From assembly GCA_037481835.1 (NCBI GenBank), contig JBBFKW010000025.1:1-15479 (forward strand): 15,479 nt of DNA. Direction: 5' to 3'. The notes below the pieces were generated by a model that had not been told where the DNA came from, ran no database searches, and worked only from the letters and a program-made list of their open reading frames with translations. The translations under genes and the position numbers were made by a program. Position 1 is the first letter of the stretch; each line of letters opens with the position of its first letter. The DNA comes from Desulfosoma sp. (GTDB lineage Bacteria > Desulfobacterota > Syntrophobacteria > Syntrophobacterales > DSM-9756). Shown piece after piece: positions 2,410 through 15,479 of the stretch.

Positions 2410-2502
2410 GGGCTTTTCCCTCCTTCCCCGCGTAGATCCCCCATCGTCGCCGCATCATGGGATCTTTGCCTCTCTCGGGAGGCCGCCCGAGACATGTCCT
2501 TC

Positions 2503-2531
2503 AAATGGAATCAAGTTCCTAGTTTTGTCAA
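2503..2531 (-). promoter_or_regulatory. Possible sigma70-type promoter for the hybrid kinase (perfect -35, poor -10)
   Basis: TTGACA on the minus strand at 2531-2526, about 120 nt upstream of the ATG at 2409. The hexamer 16-17 nt downstream (TCCATT/CCATTT) is a weak match to TATAAT. Confidence 0.3.
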
Positions 2532-2577
2532 CAAATATCCAAAGCGCGCACCAAGGGCCCGGCCCGATGTCAGCTTT

Positions 2578-2594
2578 TTTTACAATTCGTAAAA
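2578..2594. promoter_or_regulatory. AT-rich inverted repeat TTTTAC-N5-GTAAAA, candidate transcription factor/enhancer site
   Basis: Perfect 6-bp arms in the divergent intergenic region, about 115-130 nt upstream of the candidate sigma54 -24 element at 2710. Confidence 0.4.
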
Positions 2595-2708
2595 GGCGGC
2601 GCAGCCCTATGCTTCGGGTTTGGGAAACCGATCGCCGGGGCTTGTAGAAAAAGACGACGTCGCGGCCTGAGTCGCCAATCCCCGGCGCGTTTTCCGGGTG
2701 GAGCGTGA

Positions 2709-2724
2709 TGGTGCGGATTTTGCC
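2709..2724 (+). promoter_or_regulatory. Candidate sigma54 (-24/-12) promoter for the cNMP/HK/RR unit
   Basis: TGGTGCG-GATT-TTGCC: GG(2710-11)-N10-GC(2722-23) with TTGC at -12. Two mismatches to TGGCACG in the -24 box. Confidence 0.45.
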
Positions 2725-2994
2725 TCCTGAAGACACAGGAACCTGACGGCGGAGGCGAAACCTTCTCCCTCATGGTGGGCCGCAGGGGAGAAGACGGCAT
2801 TTTCCTGGGCCGGATGCAACCCCGCTCGGAAGAATCGCGGGCACGCCCGCTTTTGAGGCGCCAGTCGGTATCCACTGTGCCCGGGTGTCAGCTTCACGAG
2901 GGGGCGAGGAGTCTTGAAGACGGTTTCGGGGAGGGGCCGCCCCGGCACTGGGGAGCGGCCGAGCGGATGAGGCTTTTTAACAAGGAGGCGAGAG

Positions 2995-3477
2995 ATGATG
3001 ACCACCGATGAGCTCAAAGGGTGCTCCTTCTTCTTGGTCTTCGGCGATGCCGAACTGGAAAAGATCGGCCAAGTGACCGGGAAGAAAAGCTACAAGAAAG
3101 GCGATGTGGTCTACAAGAACGGGGACCCGGCGCAGAAATTTTTCATCGTCTCCAAAGGGCTGGTCAGCCTCCGGGAATTCCAACCCGGCGATACGGTGGG
3201 GATCGCTTTCGAGACGCGCGGGCCTGGGGAAGTTTTCGGGGTGGCTTCCTTCATGCCCATCAAGAGCTACACCCTCACGGCCGTGTGCCAGGAGGATACG
3301 GAGCTCTTCGAAGTGGACGTGAAGGGCTTGGAAGAACTCATCCAATGGGCGCCCTCCATCGGCTACATTCTCATGAAGGAGGTCGCGTGCATCTACTTCG
3401 ATCGTTATCGCCTGTGCAAGCGCCAATTGTATCAAATGGTGAAAACCCCCACGTTGATCACGGCGCTGCCCGGCTAG
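2995..3477 (+). CDS. Stand-alone cyclic nucleotide-binding (Crp/Fnr effector-type) domain protein, no HTH
   Basis: 160 aa. AAGGAGG RBS at 2982-2988. cNMP-fold pattern YKKGDVVYKNGDPAQKFFIVSKGLV...GPGEVFG...TLTAVCQEDTELFEVD. Too short for a C-terminal HTH. Confidence 0.9.
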   Translation: MMTTDELKGCSFFLVFGDAELEKIGQVTGKKSYKKGDVVYKNGDPAQKFFIVSKGLVSLREFQPGDTVGIAFETRGPGEVFGVASFMPIKSYTLTAVCQEDTELFEVDVKGLEELIQWAPSIGYILMKEVACIYFDRYRLCKRQLYQMVKTPTLITALPG

Positions 3478-3562
3478 AGGGGCTTTCCGGGAGGATCGGC
3501 CTGCGTGCCTTAAAAGCAAAGGAGACGGGCTGGTGCCTCCGAGTGCCCGGCACCTAAGGGTC

Positions 3563-3604
3563 GGCCACCTCAAAGGTGGGGCAAGAACCGCCTTGGGGGT
3601 GGCC
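3563..3604 (+). other. Long intergenic RNA hairpin
   Basis: GGCCACCTCAAAGGTGG (3563-3579) pairs with CCGCCTTGGGGGTGGCC (3588-3604): 16 of 17 pairs including two G-U, 8-nt loop. No U-tract follows. Confidence 0.55.
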
Positions 3605-3669
3605 GCGTGTGCCCTTTCGGCCCAATGGCCCGCCACAGGGCCGCACTGTTTCCCTGTCGGATCGACGCG

Positions 3670-5340
3670 ATGGAAGACAAGTACGGGAATCTTCGCCTCA
3701 AGCTCCTGGCCTCCATGCTGAGCTTTTCCCTGGTGCCGCTCTTTATCGTCGGGCTGAGCCTTTACCACCAGTTCGATCGCGCCTACACGACGAGGGTGCA
3801 AGAAAACCTGCGCGCCTTGGTGGAAGACCGCCGTCACGCGTTGGATCTCTTTTTCGATGAGCGCATCTCCCAGCTTTACACCGTGGCCCACACCCACAGT
3901 TTCGACGAGCTGTGTACACAAACCACGCTGCAGCAGGTTTTCGATCTCATGCAGCGCCGTTCCAAGTACTACGTGGACCTCGGGGTCATCGACGAAAAAG
4001 GGAATCACGTGGCTTATGCCGGCCCCTACGCCCTTAAGGGGGTCAACTATCGGGATGCCGAATGGTTCCAATCGGTGCTCCTTCACGGCATTTACGTGAG
4101 TGACGTGTTCTTGGGGGTTCGCCAGTTTCCCCATTTCATCATCGCGGTGCTCCGACGCGAGGGCGACCGTTACTGGATCCTGCGGGCGACCATCAACACC
4201 GATCTTTTCGAATCCATGGTCAAAGCAGCTCAGGCGGGAGAATTCGGCGACGCCTTTCTTGTCAATGAAAAAAATCTGTTGCAGACTTCTTCGCGTTTCG
4301 TCGGCCGCCCCATGGAGGCACCGCCCATTCCGGCACAGCCCCGTTTCAACGGCTCAAGGCTCATGACCCTGGATATCGGCCAGAGGACCATGCTCGTGGG
4401 AGCCGTCTGGCTGCACAACGTGCCGTGGATGCTCGTGGTCATGGAAGACCCCCAGGAAGAGTTCCTGCCGGTGCTGCAAACGCGGTCTTTGGCGTTGATC
4501 CTGTTGGCTGCGGGCGTGGCCGTCGTCGTCTTGGGCGCCGTCTTCGTCGTCAACCTCATGATCGGCCAGCTCCAAGAGGCGGACCGCCAGAAGGCCCTCT
4601 TGGACGCCGACCTCATGCAGACGAGCAAGATGGCCGCCTTGGGACGATTGGCGGCGGGCATCGCCCATGAAATCAACAATCCCTTGGCCGTGATCCAGGA
4701 AAAGGCCGGCTGGATTCAGGATCTTCTGGAAGAGGAAGACGTTCAAGGGAGCGAAAATTTCAAGGAATTTGAGGCCGCCGTGACCAAGATCCAGCAACAC
4801 GTGGATCGGGCCCGCAACGTGACTCATCGGCTGCTCGGCTTCGCCCGTCGCATGGAACCGGTGCAGCATCCCGTCAACATGAACAAGCTGGTGGAAGAAA
4901 CCCTGACCTTTCTGGAAAACGAAGCGCGCCATCGCAACATTCAAATCACCAAGGAATTGGAAGACAATATGCCCGATGTGCTGAGCGACGGCGCCCAGCT
5001 CCAGCAGGTGATCCTGAACGTGGTCAACAACGCCATCGATGCCGTGGAAAAGGACGGCCGGGTCCACATCAAGACCCGTTACGATAAGGATCTCCAACAC
5101 GTGCTGGTGGAAATCAGCGACACGGGGCCGGGCATTCCTTCCGAGCTCCTGGACAAGATTTTCGATCCCTTTTTCACCACCAAGAAACTGGGCAGCGGCA
5201 CCGGCTTGGGACTGAGCATTTGTCACAGCATCATGACCAAATTGGGGGGGCGTATCGAAGCGCGCAACGGCCCGCAGGGTGGAGCCGTCTTCGTGTTGTC
5301 CGTCCCCGTGCAGCACCACGCGTCCGTGTCCGTGGGATGA
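3670..5340 (+). CDS. Membrane sensor histidine kinase (TM - Cache-type periplasmic domain - TM - HisKA - HATPase_c)
   Basis: Start chosen at ATG 3670 ([13 protein letters not shown]..., 556 aa). TM1 [20 protein letters not shown]. Cache-like [10 protein letters not shown]...NYRDAEWFQ...YVSDVFLG...HFIIAV. TM2 [22 protein letters not shown]-box [21 protein letters not shown]-box [34 protein letters not shown]. Confidence 0.95.
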
Positions 5341-5384
5341 CCCCGCAGTGTGCCCGGTCCATTGCGCATAGGAGGCTTCAAACG

Positions 5385-5783
5385 ATGGATCGCCCACCGT
5401 ATCGGGTGTTGGTCGTGGATGACGAGGCGGATTTCTTGGAGACCCTCGTCAGGCGTTTGGAAAGGCGCCAGGTGGAGGCCGTCGGTGTTCCCGGAGGCCG
5501 GGAGGCGCTGGAGGCGCTGGCGGAACGTCCTTTCGACGTGGTGGTCCTGGACGTGAGGATGCCCGGCATGGACGGCCTGGAAGTCTTGAAAGCCATCAAG
5601 ACGCGATGGCCTTTGGTGGAAGTGATTTTGCTCACCGGCCATGCCTCGGTGGAATCGGGCCTGCAGGGCATGCAGCTGGGAGCCTTCGACTATGTGATGA
5701 AACCGTGCAAGCTCACCGATCTTTTGCCCAAAATCGAACTGGCCTACGAGCGCAAATGCCTGCGGGAGAAGACGACTCGATGA
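5385..5783 (+). CDS. Single-domain response regulator (REC only)
   Basis: AGGAGG at 5370-5375, ATG 5385, 132 aa. RVLVVDDE, DVVVLDVRMPGMDG (phosphoacceptor Asp), VILLTGH, GAFDYVMKP. No output domain. Confidence 0.93.
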   Translation: MDRPPYRVLVVDDEADFLETLVRRLERRQVEAVGVPGGREALEALAERPFDVVVLDVRMPGMDGLEVLKAIKTRWPLVEVILLTGHASVESGLQGMQLGAFDYVMKPCKLTDLLPKIELAYERKCLREKTTR

Positions 5784-5866: not shown

Positions 5867-6802
5867 TCAGAGTCTCAAGGCGTTCATGACGGCGTGGGCG
5901 CCCAAGGCCAAGGCCCCGGCGCCCACGGGGGTGAGGACCCAGCCGAAGGCGATTTTCAGCACCGTACGGGCATTGATGGTTTTGAGATCCTTGGCGACGC
6001 CGACGCCGAGCACGGCGCCGACGACAGCTTGGGATGAGGAGACGGGAACGCGCAGCTGGGTGAATAGATGGAGGGTGGCCGCCTCGGCCAATACCACCAC
6101 CATGGCGGAAAAAGGATCCAGAGGAACGATTCCTTTTCCCACGGTGAGCATGACCCGGCGGCTGTACGTCAAGATCCCCGTTGCAATACTCAATCCGCCG
6201 AGGAGGGCTCCCATATCGTCACGCAGCAAGCCGGCGGTGACGTAAACCCCTGTCACATTGGCCACACTGTTGGCGCCCAATCCATAGGCGGCGTAGCATC
6301 CCGTGAGGAGGACGCCCACGAGAAAAAACCGGTTTCGGGCGGAAAAGGATCGAATCCGTTCCACGACGAGTCGCTCCAGCCCTCGGTGCAGCACCGCGCT
6401 CGAGACCATGGCGGCTACGGGCGTGAGCAGCCAGCAGACGACGATCCTGCTAAGTTGGCCGAAATCGGGGGAGGCGTTCAACAGAGACCAACCGATGATG
6501 GCACCCACAAGCGCCTGCGATGTGGACGCCGGCACGCCAGCTCGGGTCAGACCCGTCATGGTGACGGCCGTGGACACGGTCAGGGCGAAGGCTGCGTCGG
6601 CATGCAAAGCGGCCAGTTTGGAATATGTGGCCATGCATTTGGTGCCTTCCAGGACGGCCCCCAACACCACGTAGGCGGCGGTCAACCACACGGCCCGGGA
6701 AAAGCGCACGAGGCCGCTCGCCACGGCCGTTCCGAAGATGTTGGCGGAATGGTTGGCCCCCAAACTCCATCCCAAAAAAAGGCCGCCCGCGATCCGCCAC
6801 AT
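5867..6802 (-). CDS. PiT (inorganic phosphate transporter/CysP) family anion permease
   Basis: 311 aa, very hydrophobic, with duplicated PiT halves: LGANHSANIFGTAV...GVPASTSQALVGAIIG and LGANSVANVTG...VPVSSSQAVVGAVLGVG...IAFGWVLTP. Adjacent to a DUF47 gene, as is typical for this family. Confidence 0.9.
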   Translation of the reverse strand: MWRIAGGLFLGWSLGANHSANIFGTAVASGLVRFSRAVWLTAAYVVLGAVLEGTKCMATYSKLAALHADAAFALTVSTAVTMTGLTRAGVPASTSQALVGAIIGWSLLNASPDFGQLSRIVVCWLLTPVAAMVSSAVLHRGLERLVVERIRSFSARNRFFLVGVLLTGCYAAYGLGANSVANVTGVYVTAGLLRDDMGALLGGLSIATGILTYSRRVMLTVGKGIVPLDPFSAMVVVLAEAATLHLFTQLRVPVSSSQAVVGAVLGVGVAKDLKTINARTVLKIAFGWVLTPVGAGALALGAHAVMNALRL

Positions 6803-6828
6803 GGTTTCCGCCCGCCTTCCGCAAAGCC

Positions 6829-7455
6829 CTATCGAAAGCTTACGGTGAGCACGTACAGAGCGTCGCTGGCGTCTTCGATGAGATCGCTGAAGGCGGTGAG
6901 GCTTTGGAGGAAGTCGGCGTAGAACTTGCCCTGCCAGAAGTCGGCGACGGGAACCTCGTGGATCTTCTGGTAGATGTCCCCTTTCAGGTCATCCACGCGT
7001 TTTTCCAAAATGCGAATGGCCAAGACCTGCTCGCGGATGTCTTCGCCTCGAACGGCCAATTCGAAGGCCAAGATGAGGATCTCGCACATCTGTTGGTTGA
7101 AGGACGCGATACGGCGGCATTCTTCGGTGATGGAGGGGTGCAGGGCAATGAGGTCGTAATAGCGGGCCGTGTCTTCCACGGTATCGAAGGCCTCGTCCAC
7201 GAGTTCCACGAAGCGGCAGAGATTGGGCCGAAGATAGGGCAGAAAAGCGCCTTCGAAAATGATGGACAGGACCCGGCGTCGAGCCGTATCGCCTTCCCGT
7301 TCCAGATCGAAAATCTTCTCCACCAGGTCTTTGGCATTGGAGGTGAGCAGTTCGGTGAGCGTGTGGCCGGCCGCGCAGAGAAGGTCCAGGTGTTCGTGCA
7401 TGGCCGTCAGAGCGGCCTCCTCCTTGCGGTTTCCGCGCATGAACTTCTTAAGCAT
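6829..7455 (-). CDS. DUF47 family (PhoU-like) phosphate-transport-regulator-type protein
   Basis: Start reassigned to ATG 7455 (MLKKFMRG..., 208 aa), which overlaps the CBS gene stop by 8 nt. Helical repeats LEREGDTARRRVL...EGAFLPYLR...VDEAFDTVED and LEKRVDDLK...SDLIEDASD are typical of DUF47. Confidence 0.88.
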   Translation of the reverse strand: MLKKFMRGNRKEEAALTAMHEHLDLLCAAGHTLTELLTSNAKDLVEKIFDLEREGDTARRRVLSIIFEGAFLPYLRPNLCRFVELVDEAFDTVEDTARYYDLIALHPSITEECRRIASFNQQMCEILILAFELAVRGEDIREQVLAIRILEKRVDDLKGDIYQKIHEVPVADFWQGKFYADFLQSLTAFSDLIEDASDALYVLTVSFR

Positions 7456-7849
7456 GGGGATTCCTGGCTCTGTCGATGAGGGCCGCCTGCATGATGTCCA
7501 TGAGGGCCACCAGGCCCACCACCGTGCCTCCGTCGCAGACGAACACGCGGGCCACATTGGCCTGTTCCATGAGAGCGGCCACGTTCTCCACGGTTTCGTC
7601 CTTGGGCACGCACCGAAGCGGCCGGCAGGCGATGTCTCCGACGCGAATTTTCATGGGATTGAGTCCCTTGGCCAGGACTTTGAAAACGACGTCGCGGGCC
7701 GTGACCACGCCGTCCAATTCCGCGGGATGGGAGGCCCGGACGAGGAGGGATCGGATGCGCTTGTCCACCATTCTTTCGATGGCTTCGTAGACCGAGGCGT
7801 CCGAGGCGATGGATTCCAACTTTCGGGTCATGATCTCTTCGAGCTTCAT
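7448..7849 (-). CDS. CBS-pair domain protein
   Basis: Start at ATG 7849 (MKLEEIMTRK..., 133 aa), preceded by GGAGAGGA. Two CBS motifs: SVYEAIERMVDKRIRSLLV...GVVTARDV and TVENVAALMEQANVARVFV...VVGLVALMDI. Confidence 0.92.
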   Translation of the reverse strand: MKLEEIMTRKLESIASDASVYEAIERMVDKRIRSLLVRASHPAELDGVVTARDVVFKVLAKGLNPMKIRVGDIACRPLRCVPKDETVENVAALMEQANVARVFVCDGGTVVGLVALMDIMQAALIDRARNPHA

Positions 7850-7892
7850 GAAGGGTTTCCTCTCCCGTGCCCGGGGCAGCGTGCCTGGGGTC

Positions 7893-8669
7893 CTAAGATC
7901 GTGAAACGTAGACGACTGGAGGCAGCCGGTCGGCGTCATCGAGCCGCGCTTGCGCATCGTTTTGGCTTACCGTTTCCACCCGGGCGACACCGAGGGGGCG
8001 GCCGTCTTCGGCCACGATCGTGACGGAATCTCCCGGGGACACGCCGTCGGCGCTTCCCAGGCCGAAGAAAAGGGTTGTCGTTTTGTCCTTGCGCACAGTC
8101 CGATAGACCGGGGCCATGCCTTGACGGCGCAGCGCTTCGTCCAGCCTGTCGCTGGCTTTATAGGACAGGTAGAGGCAAAACACAAGAAAGGGCATGGCGG
8201 CCGCGGCCCCGACCCACGGGCTCAGGCCCAAGTAGCGCAACACAAAAGATCTTTCCGAGGCTTGAAAGGCCTGGCGATCGGCCAGCAGGCGGATGGTGTA
8301 AAGGGGATTTTGGGCGGCATCCTCGGGCTTTTCTCCGTGGAGGAACACGCGAAACGTGTAAGTTCCCTCGGGCGCCGTGGGCTCCACGGCCAGCTCCGCC
8401 CTCCACAGCCTCCCCTTGGCTTCCAGGAAGGTCACGCTCAGGCCCGGCGCCGTGGTTTCATAAGTGAGCCATCGCCGTTCGGGGATAGCCGCTTCGGTCT
8501 TGCCCGCCACGGGGGTTTTCATGCCTGGATAAAGGCGGATCTCGGTCTTTGGGGTACGAACGACGGCGGCCAGGCCGTCCATCAGGCATGCCGCCAGAAT
8601 CAACCCTGCAAGAACCCCGACCCGTTGGATCCACGATCCTGTGGGGGTATGGGCGGCTCCCATAATCAT
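7893..8669 (-). CDS. Uncharacterised membrane protein (N-terminal TM/signal, beta-rich periplasmic domain, TM, small C-terminal cytoplasmic beta domain)
   Basis: ATG 8669 overlaps the upstream TGA (ATGA coupling), 258 aa; alternative start 8663. Hydrophobic segments VGVLAGLILAACLMDGLAAVV and LSPWVGAAAAMPFLVFCLYLSY. C-terminal FFGLGSADGVSPGDSVTIV...LGVARVETV. Confidence 0.8.
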   Translation of the reverse strand: MIMGAAHTPTGSWIQRVGVLAGLILAACLMDGLAAVVRTPKTEIRLYPGMKTPVAGKTEAAIPERRWLTYETTAPGLSVTFLEAKGRLWRAELAVEPTAPEGTYTFRVFLHGEKPEDAAQNPLYTIRLLADRQAFQASERSFVLRYLGLSPWVGAAAAMPFLVFCLYLSYKASDRLDEALRRQGMAPVYRTVRKDKTTTLFFGLGSADGVSPGDSVTIVAEDGRPLGVARVETVSQNDAQARLDDADRLPPVVYVSRS

Positions 8670-8881
8670 GACTCCGCCCCAGCGGCCGCACTCAGCCGAC
8701 GGATGCGGCGAAGAAGCCACCAGGCCGCGCCCACCGTGACGGCGGCCAGAGGCACATAGGTTCGCAGGAACACGGCCGCCATGGCCTTCCCGTGCGGGGC
8801 GCTCCAATACATGCACAACGTCAGTTCGGCCAGAAGAAGCACATCCATGCCGAAAACGATGAGACGCCTTTGAGTGATCAT
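8666..8881 (-). CDS. Small 2-TM membrane protein (71 aa)
   Basis: GGGAG RBS about 8 nt upstream of ATG 8881. Two hydrophobic helices with basic flanks (QRR..., LLRRIRR). Its stop overlaps the next start. Confidence 0.75.
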   Translation of the reverse strand: MITQRRLIVFGMDVLLLAELTLCMYWSAPHGKAMAAVFLRTYVPLAAVTVGAAWWLLRRIRRLSAAAGAES

Positions 8882-8966
8882 CGTGATTTCTCCCGCTGTG
8901 TTCGCTCAGTCCCCACGCCTTCGTTGAAACCCGCGGTGCCGGAATCTTTGCAGGGGGCGGCTTTTC

Positions 8967-8990
8967 CCGACCCCCTCATGAGGAGGTCGG
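8967..8990 (-). other. Intercistronic RNA hairpin
   Basis: Sense strand CCGACCUCCU-CAUG-AGGGGGUCGG: 10-bp stem with one U-G pair that forms only on the minus strand. No U-tract. Confidence 0.55.
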
Positions 8991-9029
8991 CGGCCCCGGC
9001 AAGGAGCGGGCCGTTGCCGCCGGGTAGGT

Positions 9030-9368
9030 TTACTTTTTCCTGAGATCCTGTTTGGAAACGTTCATGATGCGCACAGCGATACGATCGGGACCATGCGCCT
9101 TGTAGGCGACGCGCACCACATCCCCGGGTTGGGGCGGAATGCCGACGAGGGTCTGCTTTTCGATCTTGTATTCCGACGTCACCCCCGTAGGGCGGCCGTA
9201 CGGGTGATCCGCGCTCTTGTGCGTGTCGAATTCCTCGATGGTCAAGGTGTTTGTCGCCTTGTCCATGGAAAGCACTTTTCCCTGTGCCACGTCGGCGGCG
9301 AGCGCCGTCGAGACCATGAGGAAAGCACCCGTTATGGCCAGGAACAAACCGAGAAGGGATCGTTTCAT
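9030..9368 (-). CDS. Small secreted/periplasmic protein (Sec signal peptide, probable OB-like beta fold)
   Basis: Start reassigned to ATG 9368 with GGAGG 5 nt upstream, 112 aa. MKRSLLGLFLAITGAFLMVSTALA|AD signal peptide (A-X-A site). QGKVLSMDK...TLTIEE...PQPGDVVRVAY...IAVRI pattern. Confidence 0.85.
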   Translation of the reverse strand: MKRSLLGLFLAITGAFLMVSTALAADVAQGKVLSMDKATNTLTIEEFDTHKSADHPYGRPTGVTSEYKIEKQTLVGIPPQPGDVVRVAYKAHGPDRIAVRIMNVSKQDLRKK

Positions 9369-9447
9369 GGGAACCTCCATGGGCGAGTTCTTGTGTTTTT
9401 GAAAAGTCTTAAAGACCATCTGGTTCCGTACCCGATGCTGGAGCCCG

Positions 9448-9473
9448 GCGGCCGCCCTTTGAGAGGCGGCCGC
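9448..9473. other. Intercistronic GC-rich hairpin after the TSUP gene
   Basis: GCGGCCGCC-N8-GGCGGCCGC, perfect 9-bp stem, 13 nt downstream of the TSUP stop. No immediate U-tract. Confidence 0.6.
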
Positions 9474-9486
9474 GACGGCCCTTGCG

Positions 9487-10524
9487 TTAGTAGGATCGGG
9501 AGGCCGCTTCCCGGGCCTTCTTTTCCCGAAGTTCATTGGCGGCGCCCCGGAACATGATCACGCAGATGTAAAGAGAGATGATGCTGATGGCGCCCAGCAC
9601 GACGACGGCTGCCGAGTTGTTGAAGCCGTATTGTTTCAGGATGATGGAGACCATGCATGCCAGCACGGCACAACCGAAAAGGATCCGAATGCCGTATCCC
9701 TTGGCGTACTTGGTGGCCACGGTGCCGATTTGGGCCCCGATGGCCGCTCCCGTGAGCATGACGAAGACGGCGACCAATTCGATCCGGCCTTTCATGCTGT
9801 ATGTGAAGGCGCCGTAAAGGCCGGAAATCATCACCTCGAAAAGGTCGGTGCCCACGGCAATGTGAGTGGGGCAGCCGATGAGGTACACAAGCGCCGGCAT
9901 GCGCAGCAACCCACCGCCGATGCCCAGAAAGCCCGCCAGAGCGCCGGTGGCGAAACTCACCATGATGGGCAACCACGCGGAACATGTGAAACCGGCGGCC
10001 TTAAAATGCACCATCGGGGGGATGCGGATCTTGTGGAGGGTCTTGTACCACGTGATGCCTTCCGTGCCCTTTTCCCCTTCCACAATGCCGGCTCTTTTCT
10101 TTTGCTCCGCCTTGTAGAAGTCATAGAAAACCATGGTGGCGATGAGGGCGAGGAAAACCACATAGACCCATCGGACGACGCCGCCCACGACACCGAGACG
10201 TTCCAAATACATGATGAGCTGGGCGCCGCACTCGATGCCGACCATCGTGCCGATGATCATGACGAAGCCGAGCTTGTAGTCCACGTTGCCGAACTTGGAG
10301 TGGCGCATGGTGGATACCATGGACTTTCCGGCAATATGAGCGATGTCCGTTCCGATGGCGAAGGCCATGGGAAATCCCAAAATGTTCAGCCCCGGCGTGA
10401 CCATCCAGGCGCCGCCCATGCCGAAAAAACCGCCGATGACGCCCACGGAAAAGCCGATAAGAAGCAACCCGGGCCACAGGATATCCATTCCCGCAATGGG
10501 CATATAAAGATACAACCAATCCAT
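9487..10524 (-). CDS. Sulfite exporter TauE/SafE (TSUP) family transporter
   Basis: AAGGAGG RBS then ATG 10524 (MDWLYLYMP..., 345 aa). Duplicated TSUP motifs GVIGGFFGMGGAWMVTP...AIGTD and GALAGFLGIGGGLLRMP...AVGTD, plus GAAIGAQIG. About 8-9 TM segments. Confidence 0.93.
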   Translation of the reverse strand: MDWLYLYMPIAGMDILWPGLLLIGFSVGVIGGFFGMGGAWMVTPGLNILGFPMAFAIGTDIAHIAGKSMVSTMRHSKFGNVDYKLGFVMIIGTMVGIECGAQLIMYLERLGVVGGVVRWVYVVFLALIATMVFYDFYKAEQKKRAGIVEGEKGTEGITWYKTLHKIRIPPMVHFKAAGFTCSAWLPIMVSFATGALAGFLGIGGGLLRMPALVYLIGCPTHIAVGTDLFEVMISGLYGAFTYSMKGRIELVAVFVMLTGAAIGAQIGTVATKYAKGYGIRILFGCAVLACMVSIILKQYGFNNSAAVVVLGAISIISLYICVIMFRGAANELREKKAREAASRSY

Positions 10525-10545
10525 GGTCAGCCTCCTTGTCATCTC

Positions 10546-10845
10546 TTAGTGCTCGATGATCTTACGGCTCTTCAGGTCCAAGCCCGTCCGCGCCATGAGG
10601 AAATCCATGAAGAAACCCAGAAAGGCTCCGTACAGGGCGGTCAGAACCACGGCCCAGACGGCGAAAAGCAGCGTGTTCGTGTTGTAGAGATCGGCGATGT
10701 ATTTCACAAAGGCGTTGTTGATAACCCGCGTGTCCGCCACGACCACCAACTGGGAGGCCTTTTCCCCGCCGGCCCATACCAACGACGGCACGGCCGTCAC
10801 CAGCCCCGCGACTCCCACGGCGATTTTTTTTGCGCGCTCCATCAT
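10546..10845 (-). CDS. Small membrane protein resembling the DVU0150 family (TSUP-associated)
   Basis: Start reassigned to ATG 10845 after GGAGG, 99 aa. Signal-like N-terminus ...VPSLVWA|GG, LVVVADTR motif, one TM (LLFAVWAVVLTALYGAFLGFFM) and C-terminal GLDLKSRKIIEH. The family name is from recollection of Desulfovibrio annotations and is unverified. Confidence 0.85.
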   Translation of the reverse strand: MMERAKKIAVGVAGLVTAVPSLVWAGGEKASQLVVVADTRVINNAFVKYIADLYNTNTLLFAVWAVVLTALYGAFLGFFMDFLMARTGLDLKSRKIIEH

Positions 10846-11068
10846 GATGAAAACCTCCTCCCTCCGATGTTCGTGAAAAACAACCACTCCCTCGTGGTTT
10901 CCCTCATGGATCTCTTCAACTTCTCGACGCCGGATCTTTTCCTCCTTTCTTTTTTGTCTTCCCGTCTCATTCCTTTTGCGGCCCTTTCGGTCCTTTCCAT
11001 CCTTTGTCCCGAAGCCCTTTTCGGCCTGGTCAGGCTTTGGCGACCTCGGGCTTGCCGCCCGGGTCGCA
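10846..11068 (-). promoter_or_regulatory. Long structured, purine/GGA-rich 5' leader of the TSUP operon
   Basis: 11-bp hairpin at 11040-11067 directly after the predicted sigma54 start. Further hairpins at 11024-11035 and 11009-11024. 13 GGA triplets between 11009 and 10856, one in a hairpin loop (AACCAC-GAGGGA-GUGGUU, 10899-10882). Confidence 0.5.
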
Positions 11069-11078
11069 CCATCCATCA

Positions 11079-11094
11079 ATCAAAAGGCGTGCCC
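11079..11094 (-). promoter_or_regulatory. Candidate sigma54 promoter for the TSUP/PiT operon
   Basis: Minus strand GGGCACG-CCTT-TTGAT: near-perfect -24 box, correct 10-nt spacing, GA instead of GC at -12. Divergent from a sigma54 activator gene. Confidence 0.6.
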
Positions 11095-11107
11095 GATTCA
11101 TCGGGCA
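11090..11107. promoter_or_regulatory. Perfect inverted repeat TGCCCGAT-TC-ATCGGGCA overlapping the -24 element
   Basis: 8-bp arms with a 2-nt spacer, read directly from the sequence. Confidence 0.4.
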
Positions 11108-11228
11108 GGCTTGCGGGATGGCGAACAGATCCTTTGAGGGAGAGGATAAAAATTTTTGATCCGCAAAAATCGCGCACCCCCTAAGCCATCCGAACCTTCC
11201 ATCGCGCAGGCTCGGTTCCATGGCGGCT

Positions 11229-11247
11229 CATTGAAGTCAATGTATTG
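11229..11247. promoter_or_regulatory. Palindrome CATTGA-AG-TCAATG overlapping an IHF-like site
   Basis: 6-2-6 palindrome at 11229-11242. AGTCAA-TGTA-TTG (11235-11247) has one mismatch to the IHF consensus WATCAA-N4-TTR. Lies roughly midway between the two divergent sigma54 candidates. Confidence 0.4.
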
Positions 11248-11407
11248 AAACGACTCATGGAAAATGGAAGAACGCGCATTCCTGTCAGGGGCCTTAACAC
11301 TTGAGGGATAGCGAATTGGAGGCGGCAGTCCGGGGCACGGCGTCCATCTACCAGAAAAGTCAGGCGATTGCAGTTACTTGAAGATAAGAGGCCTTGGGGC
11401 ATCCCTT

Positions 11408-11423
11408 TGGCATGGAAGCTGCT
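11408..11423 (+). promoter_or_regulatory. Candidate sigma54 promoter for the activator/PEP-synthase-like unit
   Basis: TGGCATG-GAAG-CTGCT: GG(11409-10)-N10-GC(11421-22), close to TGGCACG-N4-TTGCW. A weaker overlapping GG-N10-GC lies at 11398-11411. Confidence 0.6.
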
Positions 11424-11486
11424 TCGATACTGGCGCGACCGCAAATGGCCGAAGAACCGGACCATGGAAAGGGGGAGAAAGCGCGG

Positions 11487-14105
11487 ATGAGGTGGAAACC
11501 GTTCTATGAGGAATGGCCCGGGTGGGGCGGGGGGATGTCCTTCAGGGCCTTTCGCATCCGCACGAAGTTGTGGCTTACCCTGGTGCCGACGGTGCTGACC
11601 ATCTTGATCGTCATGGGCTATGTGAGCCACTGGTTTTCCAGTCGGTTTCTCCAGGAAGCCGTCCGGCGCACGGTGTTACTCCAAACTTTGGCCGTCGCCC
11701 ACGAATATGAAATGTTCATGGATCGGTGCCGGGAGGATCTCCTTTGGGTCGCTCGAGACGGCGTTACGGAAGAACGCCTTCGGGACGTGTGGGCGGGGTT
11801 CAAGGCCGCACGGGGGTGGGCCTATGCGGAGATCGGCTTTGTGGAGAAAGCCGGCGGCAACGGCATTGTGTTGGCCATGTCCGGCGAGGGGGTGGAGCCC
11901 GTCGTGCTTGAGCCGGGCACATCCCTTTGGGACGGCATGGATGCGCTGTACGGGTGGACTCAAGGGCCTCCGGAGTCCGATCCCGGGCCGTGGATCGGTC
12001 CCGTGGTGCATGTGGGGTACCGATCGGTGGACGGGACGGCTTTCTATGGGAAGGCGACCCACGTGGTGCGTTTCATGGCGCGAGTGCGCGCCCGGGACGG
12101 GGAATGGCCCGAAGGGTACGTTTTCCTTTCCGTGGACGCCCGCCGGTGGCGGGATATTCTCTCTCTTTACAATTCTCCGCAATCCCCCCTTTTCGGTTTC
12201 GTTCGCAGCCCGGAATTGCGCTATCTCTATTTTATCGATTCTCAGGGCTGGATTCTTTTCCAATCGGAAGACAAAGTGGATTCGGGAAAGGCCTTGAACA
12301 CGGATACGGCCCGTTTCGGGCTTTCAGGAACCTACGGCAGGCCCGGCCTTCCCTTCGCCTTTCGTCCCAACGTGGATCATGCGGATTATTGGGGCATCGC
12401 CGGGGACATTCGGGAAATCAAGTCCGGCGTCCTCATCCGCTATGTTCCCCCGGCATCCGAGAGCAAGGTGGATCGGGTCTATATCGGGTATGCCCCCATC
12501 CTGTTTTCCAAGGGGCCCGGTGCTGAGGAAAGAACCCTTTGCGGCGGCGTGGTCTTTGTGGACCGCAGTCGACTCATCACCATGGCCGGGTATCGGCAGG
12601 TGGACGTGGTTTTCATCGTGGGGCTGGTCAGTGCGGTGCTCGTCGCCGTTTTGCTTTGGGGGGTGAGCCGCATCATCACGCGCCCCCTCTACCGGCTGGC
12701 CGCGGCGGTGAACGACATCCAGGAAACCGGCCGTCTGGAGCCCATCGATATTCCGGAAAAGGATCTGGACACCGCATTTCTCAAAGACGCGGTGAATCGG
12801 CTCGTCGAGCGCATTCGGGATCAGATGGCGGCCTTGGAGATGCAGGATCGACAACTGCAAGAAATGATCATGCGCGAGAAGATTTCCCTGGACGAGGAAA
12901 GCGATGCCTTGCGGCAGGATCGCCGAAGCTTGCCCGAACCCTTGGCCAGGTTGGTGGGGCAGTCGCCGGCCATGCAGCGGTTTCGGGAGTTTGTCGTCCG
13001 GGCCGCTTCCGTCGAGGCCGATGTGCTCATTGTGGGGGAAACGGGCACGGGCAAGCAGCTGGCCGCCGAAGCCATCCACGCCTTGAGCCGGCGGGCGTCC
13101 AAGCCTTTTGTGGCCATCAACTGCGGCGCATTGGACGAAAACCTTCTCTTGGACGCCCTGTTCGGGCATGTGAAGGGGGCGTTTTCCGAAGCCAAGAGCG
13201 AGCGGAAAGGGGCGTTTATGGCGGCCGACGGCGGGACGCTCTTCTTGGACGAAATCGGCACTGCATCCCCCAAGGTGCAGCAAGCGCTGCTTCGCGTCCT
13301 GGCGGAGCGCAAGGTGCGTCCCTTGGGAAGCGACGTGGAACATGCCGTGGACGTCCGCGTGGTGGCGGCGACGAACGTGGACTTGCTGGACCTGGTCCGG
13401 CGGGGCCTTTTCCGGGAGGATCTCTATTACCGACTCAACGTGCTCACCTTACAGACGCCGCCTTTGCGGGAACGGCGGGAGGATATCCCGCTTTTGGCGG
13501 CCCATTTCCTTTCGGAAGCCGGGGCTAAACTGAACCGCTCCACGGTGTCGTTGACCCAGGGGGCTTTGGAAGCCCTCTTGGCCCACGATTGGCCGGGGAA
13601 CGTGCGTGAATTGGAAAACCGTCTGACCCGGGCCGTGGCCATGACCCAAGGTTCGCGGATTCACGCCTCCGATTTGGACCTGCAAGGGGATGCGGGGGCG
13701 CTCGCCCCCATGGGTGCCAACGGCGAATCGGAGGCGAGGGAGGCGATGGGCTGGAGAAGTGGTCACGCGGGAAAAGGCATGGGCGGGGACCCTTTCCGTG
13801 AGGGCGATGAGGGCAGTGTGCAAAGGACCGTGGGAGGCAAGCGGGAAGCGCCTCCGGTGGAACTCAACGAACGGCAGCGCAAGGCCCTGACGGTGCTCCT
13901 CCAGCGCGGCCACATCACAAGGGCCGAATATCAGGAAGCGGTCGGAGGCGGCGTGGCGCCTCGAACAGCTCTCAATGATCTTCAGGACATGGTGGCGAAA
14001 GGGGTGCTCAAGAAAACAGGCCGAGGGCCGGCGACGCGCTACAAGGTAATGCGGCGCGAGCACCTCCTGGCGTGTGTCGACGAAGGGCCCGGAGGATCTT
14101 CATGA
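11487..14105 (+). CDS. Membrane-anchored sigma54-dependent transcriptional activator (TM - periplasmic sensor - TM - HAMP - AAA+ - winged-helix C-terminus)
   Basis: Start uncertain: 11487 follows GGAG, alternatives are 11445 and 11535; the ORF-track TTG at 11394 lies upstream of the predicted promoter. TM1 LWLTLVPTVLTILIVMGYV; TM2 VVFIVGLVSAVLVAVLLWGV; HAMP IITRPLYRLAAAV. Walker A GETGTGKQ; INCGAL...LFGHVKGAFSEA; Walker B LFLDEIG; FREDLYYRLN; WPGNVRELEN. C-terminal LNERQ...ITRAEYQ...RTALNDLQDMV..GVL...GRGPATRY. Confidence 0.95.
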   Translation: MRWKPFYEEWPGWGGGMSFRAFRIRTKLWLTLVPTVLTILIVMGYVSHWFSSRFLQEAVRRTVLLQTLAVAHEYEMFMDRCREDLLWVARDGVTEERLRDVWAGFKAARGWAYAEIGFVEKAGGNGIVLAMSGEGVEPVVLEPGTSLWDGMDALYGWTQGPPESDPGPWIGPVVHVGYRSVDGTAFYGKATHVVRFMARVRARDGEWPEGYVFLSVDARRWRDILSLYNSPQSPLFGFVRSPELRYLYFIDSQGWILFQSEDKVDSGKALNTDTARFGLSGTYGRPGLPFAFRPNVDHADYWGIAGDIREIKSGVLIRYVPPASESKVDRVYIGYAPILFSKGPGAEERTLCGGVVFVDRSRLITMAGYRQVDVVFIVGLVSAVLVAVLLWGVSRIITRPLYRLAAAVNDIQETGRLEPIDIPEKDLDTAFLKDAVNRLVERIRDQMAALEMQDRQLQEMIMREKISLDEESDALRQDRRSLPEPLARLVGQSPAMQRFREFVVRAASVEADVLIVGETGTGKQLAAEAIHALSRRASKPFVAINCGALDENLLLDALFGHVKGAFSEAKSERKGAFMAADGGTLFLDEIGTASPKVQQALLRVLAERKVRPLGSDVEHAVDVRVVAATNVDLLDLVRRGLFREDLYYRLNVLTLQTPPLRERREDIPLLAAHFLSEAGAKLNRSTVSLTQGALEALLAHDWPGNVRELENRLTRAVAMTQGSRIHASDLDLQGDAGALAPMGANGESEAREAMGWRSGHAGKGMGGDPFREGDEGSVQRTVGGKREAPPVELNERQRKALTVLLQRGHITRAEYQEAVGGGVAPRTALNDLQDMVAKGVLKKTGRGPATRYKVMRREHLLACVDEGPGGSS

Positions 14106-15479
14106 TCAACATGTGGCAACGGATCGCGAAGCGGTTCTCGAAAAAACAGCGGCGCAGTCCCGAAGAGGTCGCCGATCTCTTTCGGTTCAAATACAGCCAC
14201 TTCAAAGACCTGCTGCAGTCCAACACAGACCTGGCCCAAGTCATCGCCGACATCACAGAACGGCTTCAGGGCCATGACGTTTTCGGCATGGGTTACGTGC
14301 GAGCCAAGGCCACCATGGCCATGTCCCATGCGGCCAGGATGGTTCGGGCGTTGAACGCCTTGTCCTTCCATCGCTATGCGGCATTGGAAGACGCCCTGGA
14401 AAGGATCCAGAACCATATCCGTGAAGAGCTGGAAGCGGAATCGGAAAAGGCCGGTCGTTGTCCCGACCTGGTCATCCCCCTGGAAAAGGTCCATCGGGGC
14501 ATGGTGGATTGGGTCGGGGGGAAAAGCGCCAATCTGGGGGAAGTGGCCGGCCGGGTGGGGCTCAAGGTGCCTCAGGGTTTTGCCGTGACGACGCGGGCCT
14601 TCGAGCTGTTCATGGATCAGGGAGACCTTCGGGACTGGATACGCAAGCACAAGACCGAAACGGACATGACGTCGCCTGCGGCGGTGCAAGCATTGAGCGA
14701 AACCGTACAGCACCTGATCCTACGCACACCGGTGCCTCGGGAGATCCGGGAGGCTTTGGAGGCGGCGTTCCATGAGATGGAAGCCAAGGCAGCGCAGAGC
14801 CTCGCTTCGGGCCGTCCCCTGCGGGTGGCCATGCGCAGCAGTGCCATTGGGGAAGACAGCGATTTGTCCTTCGCCGGCCAGTACGTGAGCGTGCTCAATG
14901 TGGAGCGGGATCGGCTGGCCGAGACTTACCGGGTCATCGTGGCGAGCCTCTACACGCCGCGGGCTGTTTCCTACCGGTATCAAAAGGGCATCCGGGACGA
15001 GGACACGGCCATGGGGGTTACGGTGTTGGCCATGATCGAATCGGTGGCCGCCGGTGTCGCCTATTCCATGGATCCGCTGCGCCCCAACCCGGATGAGCTG
15101 TTGATTTCCGGCATTTGGGGTCTGGGCCCCTACGCTGTGGAAGGGGTGGTGACGCCGGACATGGTCCGCGTGTCCAAAAAGCCGGGCTTTCCCATCCTGG
15201 AAAAAACGGTGGCCGTGAAACCCGTGAAGCTCGTGCTCAACCCGGACGGCGGGTTGCGGGAAATTCCCGTGCCGGAGGCGGATCGGGCCCGCTTGTGCCT
15301 GGACGACGATGCCGTGCGACGACTGGCCGAGGCGGTGATCCGGTTGGAGGAGCACTTCGGATGTCCCCAGGACGTGGAGTGGGCTTTGGACGGCCGGGGT
15401 GACGTCTACATCCTCCAGAGCCGGCCTTTGCAGATCCTCGGGACTTCGGCCGTGGATGCCCCGCCGGAGCCGGCGGCGG
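14102..15479 (+). CDS. PEP synthase/pyruvate phosphate dikinase-like protein (PEP/pyruvate-binding, PPDK_N domain), runs off the right edge of the window
   Basis: Translated by hand; absent from the ORF track. GGAGG at 14091-14095; ATG 14102 overlaps the TGA of the activator gene. About 120-aa helical N-terminal extension (FRFKYSHFKDLLQSN...), then VGGKSANLGE, VPQGFAVTT, VAMRSSAIGEDSDLSFAGQY, AGVAYSMDP, WGLG..AVEG..TPD, FGCPQDVEWA, ILQSRPL. Confidence 0.92.
   Translation, partial: MINMWQRIAKRFSKKQRRSPEEVADLFRFKYSHFKDLLQSNTDLAQVIADITERLQGHDVFGMGYVRAKATMAMSHAARMVRALNALSFHRYAALEDALERIQNHIREELEAESEKAGRCPDLVIPLEKVHRGMVDWVGGKSANLGEVAGRVGLKVPQGFAVTTRAFELFMDQGDLRDWIRKHKTETDMTSPAAVQALSETVQHLILRTPVPREIREALEAAFHEMEAKAAQSLASGRPLRVAMRSSAIGEDSDLSFAGQYVSVLNVERDRLAETYRVIVASLYTPRAVSYRYQKGIRDEDTAMGVTVLAMIESVAAGVAYSMDPLRPNPDELLISGIWGLGPYAVEGVVTPDMVRVSKKPGFPILEKTVAVKPVKLVLNPDGGLREIPVPEADRARLCLDDDAVRRLAEAVIRLEEHFGCPQDVEWALDGRGDVYILQSRPLQILGTSAVDAPPEPAA

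Follow-up and report, generated by a model that had tools for sequence, protein, structure and literature searches.

The window analysed here, that is, the whole stretch of 15,479 nucleotides (nt) that makes up contig JBBFKW010000025.1 of a Desulfosoma sp. assembly (GCA_037481835.1), carries a string of eight minus-strand genes that is divergent from the genes for a sigma-54 activator and a phosphoenolpyruvate (PEP)-synthase-like dikinase. By sequence comparison, the first five genes of the string and the activator gene are the counterpart of the DVU0150-DVU0146/DVU0151 regulon of Desulfovibrio vulgaris, and the last three, coding for a CBS pair, a DUF47 protein and a PiT permease, are a separate three-gene module whose attachment to this core is limited to two genera within the window's family. 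The explanation that we favour, and consider probable though far from assured, is that the locus is a DVU0151 regulon enlarged by a permease module, with a ligand-induced multi-subunit TSUP anion permease and a regulated oxyanion permease.

How sulfate, sulfite and related anions move across the membranes of sulfate reducers is still unsettled, and one comparative study has TSUP and CysP-type PiT proteins as no more than candidates for anion transport in these bacteria (PMC5840216). The D. vulgaris cluster DVU0145-DVU0150 has been cited since 2009 as induced in syntrophy and without function (as cited in the available part of PMC4265775). The window joins both threads because it has a conserved TSUP assembly in one operon-like string with a PiT that lacks the signature aspartates. 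The core regulon and its induction in syntrophy were already known (PMC4641369 and PMC4265775, in the parts available); what is new here is the separable trio, the aspartate-less PiT, the prediction of a double-Cache (dCache) sensor, the conserved, predicted divergent promoters with TGCGCGAT sites, and the co-occurrence with dsrA. The outcome is a short list of substrates for the genetically tractable D. vulgaris and a defined double-Cache domain for ligand screening.

The core genes as a counterpart of the DVU0151 regulon

All eight co-oriented genes that the first-pass annotation had placed on the minus strand with short gaps or overlaps were found at those positions, the distances from the gene for a 99-residue protein to that for PiT being +3, +118, +148, -4, +43, -8 and +26 nt. 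The 99-residue protein (10845..10546, minus) matched the NCBIfam model NF040783, the 'DVU0150 family', with 117.5 bits over positions 2-99 of this 99-position model (cut-off 70), and with 118.8 bits when the whole genome was searched. The genes then follow in the order of the DVU0151 regulon, namely a small membrane protein, a TSUP permease, a lipoprotein-type protein, a small gene and a hypothetical gene, with the activator gene divergent from them. In the part of Kazakov et al. (2015) that was available, DVU0151 is a single-component regulator with DVU0150-DVU0146 as its target, under 'transmembrane transport', and it is said to have a GAFSEA loop, an N-terminal sensing domain described as unknown, no receiver domain and no Fis-type helix-turn-helix (PMC4641369). 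The activator of the window (11535-14105, plus; 856 residues; Pfam Sigma54_activat 1e-62 and AAA_lid_14) is of this type, as it consists of a transmembrane segment, a periplasmic sensor, a second transmembrane segment, a helical linker, an AAA+ domain with the GAFSEA loop and a C-terminus that is not of the Fis type. Its hydrophobic segments are at 8-34 and 352-385, and Pfam found neither Response_reg nor HTH_8 in it, nor the HAMP domain that had been ascribed to it.

Because the 99-residue protein matches NF040783 and the activator is of the DVU0151 type, with the GAFSEA loop of that protein (PMC4641369, available part), the first-pass annotation was right in pointing to a parallel arrangement at DVU0149-DVU0152. 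Its description of the system as uncharacterised, taken to mean undescribed, could not be maintained since the DVU0151 regulon, to which the core corresponds, is already in the literature (PMC4641369, same part) and NCBI already has a model for the DVU0150 family. Qi et al. (2014) found DVU0145-DVU0150 to be raised in syntrophic coculture and lowered once sulfate was supplied by a shift, and the available text of that paper, citing Walker 2009 and Plugge 2010, gives the cluster as one without known function (PMC4265775). Searches of the literature with the locus tags, with DUF4881 and with TSUP, Desulfovibrio and syntrophic found no functional study.

Besides the order of the five genes and the divergent, receiver-less GAFSEA activator with its non-Fis C-terminus, the window has in common with the regulon of D. 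vulgaris Hildenborough a site about 180-235 nt upstream that is predicted to be a sigma-54 promoter, a GCGCGAT-type site core and a PEP-synthase-related gene behind the activator. It differs from that regulon in coming from another bacterial class, in the CBS, DUF47 and PiT genes added on the same strand, in its -12 element, TTGA, and in the place of the receiver gene, which in the window accompanies a dCache kinase gene on the other strand and in the DVU0151 regulon is at the operon end.

NF040783 was present in 6 of the 9 genomes of the window's family, and in 49 of 88 of its class; of the 401 genomes in the phylum sample 90 had it, and 81 of the matches exceeded the cut-off. Named records with the DVU0150 family include metagenome-assembled genomes (MAGs) of Desulfosoma, Desulfarculaceae, Desulfomonilales, Desulfobacterales, Acidobacteriota and Aminicenantes. 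Neighbourhoods were counted in 40 loci of 20 kb from 38 genomes. The TSUP gene adjoined the DVU0150-family gene in 38 of these and the gene for the 258-residue protein was present in 36, which bears out the claim that the accessory genes occur with this TSUP clade elsewhere. The PEP-synthase-like gene also travels with the core, as had been proposed, being inside the stretch (within 10 kb) in 26 loci of both clades; the full-length membrane activator, divergent from the core, was seen in 9. In a quick TSUP tree all 40 core TSUPs formed one clade (SH-aLRT 99) on a long branch from other TauE paralogues, with moderate support (82 and 86) for two sub-clades. In clade A, to which the window belongs, the TSUPs are 78-96% identical to that of the window and the membrane activator is followed by the dikinase gene. 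The clade-B TSUPs are about 65% identical to it, a receiver-type activator is about 4 kb off and the dikinase gene is about 6 kb downstream on the opposite strand. An open reading frame (ORF) of 197-250 codons between the TSUP gene and that for the 258-residue protein was found in 25 of the 26 listed clade-B loci and also in the 26th, L054, and the full DUF4881 lipoprotein of clade B was recognised in a Pfam test made on the ORF of L036. An ORF of 68-73 codons that ends within 30 nt of the start of the gene for the 258-residue protein was found in 15 of the 26, and the order of the five genes was found in both clades. Two genomes, G029 and G072, have both clade types. An apparent fusion of TSUP and DUF4881 in L054 was an ORF-calling error, there being a stop after residue 353.

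The 99-residue protein has a signal-peptide-like N-terminus that ends VWA/GG and hydrophobic segments at 7-26 and 57-85. Its short predicted periplasmic stretch has the motif V..D.R (VVADTR here), invariant in an alignment of 30 sequences, and in the predicted topology this is followed by one transmembrane segment and a cytoplasmic tail with an invariant E-H end. The TSUP/TauE permease comes from an ORF of 351 codons (10542..9487, minus) and matched PF01925 with 143.1 bits (1.4e-41; gathering cut-off 32.6), so that its likeness to TauE/SafE and the characterised TSUP proteins (TC 2.A.102) is clear. The conserved start is probably at 10524 (MDWLY...), which gives 345 residues rather than 351, and a central insert makes the protein longer than the Pfam model with its 237 positions. 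Unlike the characterised TSUPs, the core TSUP has about 345 residues with this insert, is always accompanied by four small envelope proteins and is on a long branch. The mean column identity in an alignment of 30 of these TSUPs was 78%, and no solved TSUP relative was found by sequence.

The 112-residue exported protein (9368..9030, minus) scored 25.8 bits with DUF4881 (PF16222), just below the cut-off of 27, and its positional orthologues scored 27.8 (L044), 36.8 (L084) and, in the clade-B locus L036, 304.6 (2.9e-91). It matches both ends of the profile without the middle, and judged by sequence it is a shortened relative of DUF4881, not a formal member, and the counterpart of the 'lipoprotein' DVU0148. 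It has no lipobox cysteine and a single N-terminal hydrophobic segment at 3-28. A likeness to ExtJ (E 0.0092, 16.4 bits with a cut-off of 52.5) was taken as chance. The gene for the 71-residue small membrane protein (8881..8666, minus), recognised as an ORF with orthologues that tblastn found in 15 loci at a coverage of at least 60%, shares 4 nt with the next gene. The protein has no Pfam or NCBIfam family, and of the two transmembrane segments ascribed to it earlier the first passes a strict hydropathy cut and the second fails it. The 258-residue bitopic membrane protein (8669..7893, minus), which has orthologues and also no Pfam or NCBIfam family, gave an AlphaFold2 model with a mean predicted local distance difference test (pLDDT) score of 94.1, with a helix at 9-38, strands at 43-128, a helix at 151-182 and strands at 185-257. 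The predicted layout is thus a transmembrane helix, a periplasmic Ig-like beta-sandwich, a second transmembrane helix and a cytoplasmic small beta-barrel. A search with this fold gave generic Ig-like, filamin and FlgT matches only, with a TM-score of at most 0.27, which were set aside, and the ESM Atlas gave unnamed clusters of the same family only.

When the activator sensor was modelled from an alignment of 13 sequences, the mean pLDDT was 79.1 and the top Foldseek matches were the dCache domains of TlpA, TlpC and HK1S-Z (probability 1.00, target TM-score 0.52-0.67). The model thus predicts a double-Cache domain, and it agrees with the earlier claim that the activator has a periplasmic sensor of its own. 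Residues of about 35-350 are predicted to resemble the sensors of TlpA, TlpC and HK1S-Z in having a long stalk helix and two PAS-like modules; the sensor is joined to a sigma-54 AAA+ domain in the window and to a chemoreceptor or a kinase in those three proteins. By sequence, the sensor matched no Pfam dCache model or PDB chain and showed no similarity to the neighbouring dCache kinase (E 1.0).

The ATG of the dikinase gene (14102..15479, plus) overlaps the stop codon of the activator gene as ATGA. The contig end cuts the gene, so that the window holds about the first 459 residues (PPDK_N 4.3e-91). Full-length orthologues have 862-900 residues with an N-terminal extension, PPDK_N, the PEP-utilizers mobile domain and about 290 residues that belong to no family. 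The ATP-grasp PPDK_N domain and the swivelling phospho-histidine domain are common to this protein and to dikinases of the PEP synthase and rifampicin phosphotransferase type; unlike PEP synthase, it has an N-terminal extension of about 130 residues and the C-terminal part without a family. PEP synthases in the PDB align to the orthologues only up to about residue 587, and in the C-terminal part no match to a PEP/pyruvate domain was found, the ESM Atlas giving unnamed clusters of the same family only. The copy in the window, cut at the contig end, scored below the cut-offs of TIGR01418 (250.7; cut-off 739.75) and NF005057 (263.2; cut-off 598).

The region before the gene for the 99-residue protein was aligned from the window and five relatives. 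The predicted sigma-54 promoter of the operon, GGGCACGCCTTTTGAT (minus, 11094..11079), is in a block kept in all six sequences, and some 235 nt separate it from the ATG at 10845; its -12 element is TTGA in the window's genus and TTGC in L057 and L058. Sites of the TGGCACGCCCATTGCTT type were found at -169 to -196 in L044, L049 and L074, and the available supplement to PMC4641369 gives TTTGGCACGGCCATTGCTC at -180 for DVU0150 of D. vulgaris. The predicted sigma-54 promoter of the activator gene, TGGCATGGAAGCTGC (plus, 11408-11422), is kept in five of the six sequences. The claim of sigma-54 promoters facing both ways is therefore supported by conservation in relatives; the number of bare pattern matches, 5 with 3.17 expected, is not above chance, and a match at 11188..11174 that was not kept in the closest relatives has been replaced by that at 11094..11079.

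Just upstream of the operon promoter are two direct repeats of TGCGCGAT (minus, 11169-11176 and 11201-11208), 32 nt apart. This sequence occurs only twice in the 15.5-kb window with 0.78 expected, and 39 of 200 shuffles reached 2. The repeats are kept in L059 and L056, a related block, ATCCCGCAAG, is at 11119..11110, and the core of TGCGCGAT is the same as that of TTTTGCGCGATCAG and CTTTGCGCGATCGT, the DVU0151 sites predicted in D. magneticus and D. vulgaris Miyazaki (PMC4641369, available supplement). On the strength of their sequence and position we regard the repeats as candidate binding sites of the activator. From the position of the promoter, the stretch 10846..11067 (minus) would be an operon leader of about 220 nt. 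This stretch is purine-rich, its computed fold of -69.9 kcal/mol (z -2.74) was equalled in stability by 1 of 200 shuffles, its sequence is poorly conserved, and Rfam gave no match in the window or the control region, leader included. In Desulfovibrio desulfuricans 27774 exposed to nitric oxide, the genes that correspond to those for the small protein, activator and dikinase-like protein were all lowered (-1.85, -1.45 and -1.21; PMC5701242, available part), and this joint response fits autoregulation and an operon of activator and dikinase genes.

The CBS-DUF47-PiT module and the aspartate-less PiT

The first gene of the added module (7849..7448, minus) encodes a stand-alone CBS pair of 133 residues that matched PF00571 in two stretches (74.4 bits, 8.9e-21). 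It is followed by the gene for a DUF47/PhoU-like protein of 208 residues (7455..6829, minus), which matched PF01865, PhoU_div, with 92.5 bits (3.1e-26; cut-off 24.4) and scored 96.4 with TIGR00153, below the cut-off of 104.3, and by the gene for a short PiT permease of 311 residues (6802..5867, minus), which matched PF01384, PHO4, with 175.2 bits (2.3e-51; cut-off 33.7). The CBS and DUF47 genes share 8 nt, and the junction between the gene for the 258-residue protein and the CBS gene, 7893/7849, is 43 nt. The module had been called fused to the TSUP operon, and this is so only in that the genes adjoin, there being no single reading frame. As an extension of the core the trio is real and lineage-specific, since it was found behind the core in 4 of the 40 loci, all from the two genera mentioned above. 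The order of core plus trio was kept in five genomes of these genera, with a junction that is 43-49 nt long in one of them and widened to 156 nt in the other. A consensus scan of the region found five terminator-like sites, with 7.0 expected, all within genes or the leader and none in any intergenic gap.

In phosphate-transporting PiTs the signature GANDVANA is present in both halves of the protein and its aspartates are essential (Marietou et al. 2018, PMC5840216, citing Bottger and Pedersen 2005, in the part available), and in the sulfate permease CysP the same text gives G and N in place of both aspartates. The signatures of the PiT in the window are GANHSAN and GANSVAN, with no aspartate in either, and because both signature aspartates are replaced this protein was not filed as a phosphate transporter. 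All four orthologues are similar, with GANHSAN/GANSVAN, GANHCAN/GANSVAN and, in two loci, GANNSAN/GANNVAN. The second PiT of the genome has GANDVAN twice. In the PiT tree, in which L112 (wrong ORF) and L085 (long branch) were not used, the CBS-linked PiTs formed a clade of 11 (support 97/91) with the four core-attached ones as a sub-clade (100/99). The sister clade retains GANDSAN in the first half, and the loss of the aspartate in the N-terminal half is confined to the lineage in which trio and core came together.

Like the PiT of the window, CysP of Bacillus subtilis is short and has both GANDVANA aspartates replaced, by G and N in CysP (PMC5840216, same part) and by H and S in the window. 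Unlike CysP, the PiT of the window is not linked to sulfate-activation genes and is paired with DUF47 and CBS proteins. In other pairs of this kind, as in the window, the DUF47 gene is directly upstream of a short PiT gene, which was so in at least 23 of 27 related loci; the window differs from them in its CBS gene, which is confined to the closest clade of 11, in the sigma-54 TSUP operon and in the loss of both aspartates. No SulP was found in the genome, and one DASS transporter was found. In L111, L114 and L122, all of one family, a short PiT gene and a gene for a canonical PiT of 407 residues are in tandem, with a DUF47 gene before them in L111; DUF47 was not detected before the tandem in L114, and L122 starts at the contig end. 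Since the two types of PiT occur side by side in one family, they probably differ in function.

DUF47-led permease genes are attached to the core in other lineages also. In L084 (a Desulfobacterales MAG) and L083 (a Desulfobacteria MAG) genes for a second TauE, DUF47, Na_Pi_cotrans and PhoU-domain proteins come after the core on its own strand, and in L085, the second locus of the Desulfobacterales MAG, the DVU0150-family gene has behind it those for a receiver, Usp, DUF47 and PiT. A TauE gene comes directly after the trio in one genus. In genome G084 (L101:1489-3360) a single ORF of 623 codons contains PiT (PHO4, 18-302) and TauE (342-612), and in the congeneric L099 and L100 the two genes are separate and 15-16 nt apart. 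The single ORF could have arisen by natural fusion of members of two anion-permease families, or through a fault in the assembly. As further observations on L084 (3778-5767) and L083 (8004-10451), a protein of 252-258 residues without a family and the second TauE paralogue stand between the core and the DUF47 gene, and an IS200-type transposase is inside the L084 string.

Mechanism and alternative explanations

The explanation that we favour would work as follows. A small periplasmic ligand would bind to the double-Cache sensor of the activator, and the activator, bound to the TGCGCGAT repeats, would fire the two divergent sigma-54 promoters. One of these would drive the activator's own gene and the translationally coupled dikinase gene, which would be autoregulation. 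The other would drive the five core genes, from the DVU0150-family gene to that for the 258-residue scaffold, and in the window's lineage there would probably be read-through into the CBS, DUF47 and PiT genes. The five core proteins would come together in the inner membrane as one permease for a small anion, and the PiT would carry a related oxyanion other than phosphate, gated by DUF47 and the nucleotide-binding CBS pair. For the anion our best guess would be a sulfur-type or phosphate-type inorganic oxyanion; we prefer this class because the permease is a TSUP, because permeases of phosphate families have been recruited more than once, and because of the association with dsrA. In the phylum sample dsrA was found in 82 of the 90 core-positive genomes and in 124 of the 311 others, counts on which relatedness inflates any test.

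Several observations weigh against this explanation. Shared ancestry confounds the association with dsrA. In the window's genus the predicted operon promoter has GA, and not the canonical GC, in its -12 element. The best-matching solved dCache domains bind lactate, amino acids and indole, which suits an organic substrate or signal better than an inorganic one. The D. vulgaris study of 2009 reportedly compared cocultures with sulfate-limited monocultures, and this would argue against plain sulfate scavenging. With the NCBIfam model for CysP (NF053884, cut-off 400) the PiT of the window scored 122.6 and the canonical PiT of the same genome 127.5; since the canonical PiT scores no worse, the match was rejected as evidence for sulfate and the PiT of the window was not filed as CysP. 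As to the tie between module and core, in 46 of the 54 other core loci neither a DUF47 gene nor a phosphate-type permease gene is nearby, and the trio is by itself in seven other loci (L099-L105); the genomes with such a solitary trio are all five of a sister family, G312 and G041. In G312 it is behind genes for a kinase and a receiver-type sigma-54 activator, and in G041 behind an outer-membrane-channel-like gene. Finally, G006, of the window's own genus, retains CBS, DUF47 and PiT intact at 84, 71 and 78% identity, and in this genome, searched in all but 4401 bases, no DVU0150-family gene, TSUP, activator sensor or dikinase was found; the stretch with the trio contains no N. The DNA synteny between the window and G006 stops inside the gene for the 258-residue protein, a remnant of which precedes the G006 trio (L132, G006:C1:52000-66000, at 9297-9867) in two frames with the first 56 or so codons gone, and the kinase-core part of the neighbouring dCache kinase has no counterpart there. 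As the trio is separable in the seven other loci and in G006, its coupling to the TSUP core is not obligatory; on this comparative evidence the module can live alone and the coupling, if any, is facultative.

These last observations lead to the question whether the locus is simply two independent units placed head to tail, in which the CBS, DUF47 and PiT genes have their own promoter and an unrelated phosphate-like housekeeping job. The solitary trios of L099-L105, the survival of the trio in G006 without the core and the junction of 156 nt in the second genus would all suit such an arrangement. We nevertheless think it improbable, because the consensus scan found no promoter-like or terminator-like site at the junction in the window, the order is kept in the five genomes of two genera, DUF47-led permeases have joined the core independently elsewhere, with PiT beside or fused with TauE, and the N-half aspartate was lost only where the trio joined the core. 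What deserves somewhat more weight, unlikely as it still appears to us, is that the core carries an organic anion such as a carboxylate, an amino acid or an organosulfonate, with the dCache sensors detecting this compound and the dikinase phosphorylating it or its product. The sensor of the activator, by prediction, and those of the neighbouring kinases are double-Cache domains, of which the best structural matches bind lactate, amino acids and indole, the dikinase-like gene accompanies the core in clade A and clade B alike, the TSUP family has its name from toluene-sulfonate uptake and from sulfoacetate and sulfite export (PMC5840216, available part), and the D. vulgaris genes are induced in cocultures that ferment lactate (PMC4265775, available part). 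Against an organic anion, no genes for catabolic or desulfonating enzymes were seen in the annotated loci, and the modules that have repeatedly joined the core belong to families for inorganic anions of the phosphate type.

It is very unlikely, in our estimate, that the TSUP assembly is chiefly a sensing device, or 'transceptor', that feeds a network of kinases, receivers and the dikinase. The loci are indeed unusually rich in signalling genes, which encode kinases with dCache domains, soluble kinases, single receivers and sigma-54 activators of two kinds; the column identity given above shows how extreme the conservation of the TSUP is; and G006, which is without the TSUP core, is also without the kinase-core part of the neighbouring kinase. 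TSUPs, however, are permeases by family, no sequence link was found between the accessory proteins and kinase or receiver domains, and the strong induction in D. vulgaris (PMC4265775, available part) suits a working transporter. About as unlikely, in our view, is a role in importing selenite, tungstate or molybdate, as a trace oxyanion of a metalloid or metal that the hydrogenases and formate dehydrogenases used in syntrophy need. Selenite is taken up by phosphate transporters in yeast and plants. Induction in syntrophy (PMC4265775, same part) and the chance-level likeness of the 112-residue protein to ExtJ of a selenite/tellurite operon would agree with such a role, but no selenium, molybdenum or tungsten genes were seen in the annotated loci and the ExtJ match is far under its cut-off. 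The enlarged DVU0151 regulon with an oxyanion as substrate thus remains the explanation that we prefer. A bolder form of it, which we would put forward only as a speculation with the odds well against it, is that the DVU0150/TSUP assembly and the DUF47-gated permeases that have repeatedly joined it are two halves of one oxyanion device of dissimilatory sulfur reducers, for example for the import or exchange of sulfite, thiosulfate or sulfate at low supply. In the window's lineage the PiT would then have been adapted to this same non-phosphate anion by losing both aspartates. If this were true, the long-sought carriers of sulfur oxyanions would be named and the syntrophy-induced cluster explained.

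Flanking signalling genes

The operon is flanked by a signalling block at 1-5783, in which the genes were assigned by Pfam, and comparable kinase/receiver sets recur near the core in relatives. The block begins with a gene for a hybrid PAS/GAF histidine kinase with a receiver (1-2409, minus; open end), which is followed on the plus strand by those for a cNMP-binding protein (2995-3477), a dCache_1 histidine kinase (3607-5340) and a single receiver protein (within 5220-5783). The pair of dCache kinase and receiver genes is convergent with the PiT gene, and a kinase/receiver pair also adjoins the core in L059, L057, L053 and L036. Antisense shadow ORFs are common in GC-rich DNA, and two minus-strand ORFs without a family, at 2977-4134 (385 residues) and 4354-5397 (347 residues), are antisense to the kinase gene and of this kind. 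The ORFs listed as 'unknown' at L036:5822-8269, L059:235-2097 and L059:18259-19275 are likewise antisense shadows of kinase genes.

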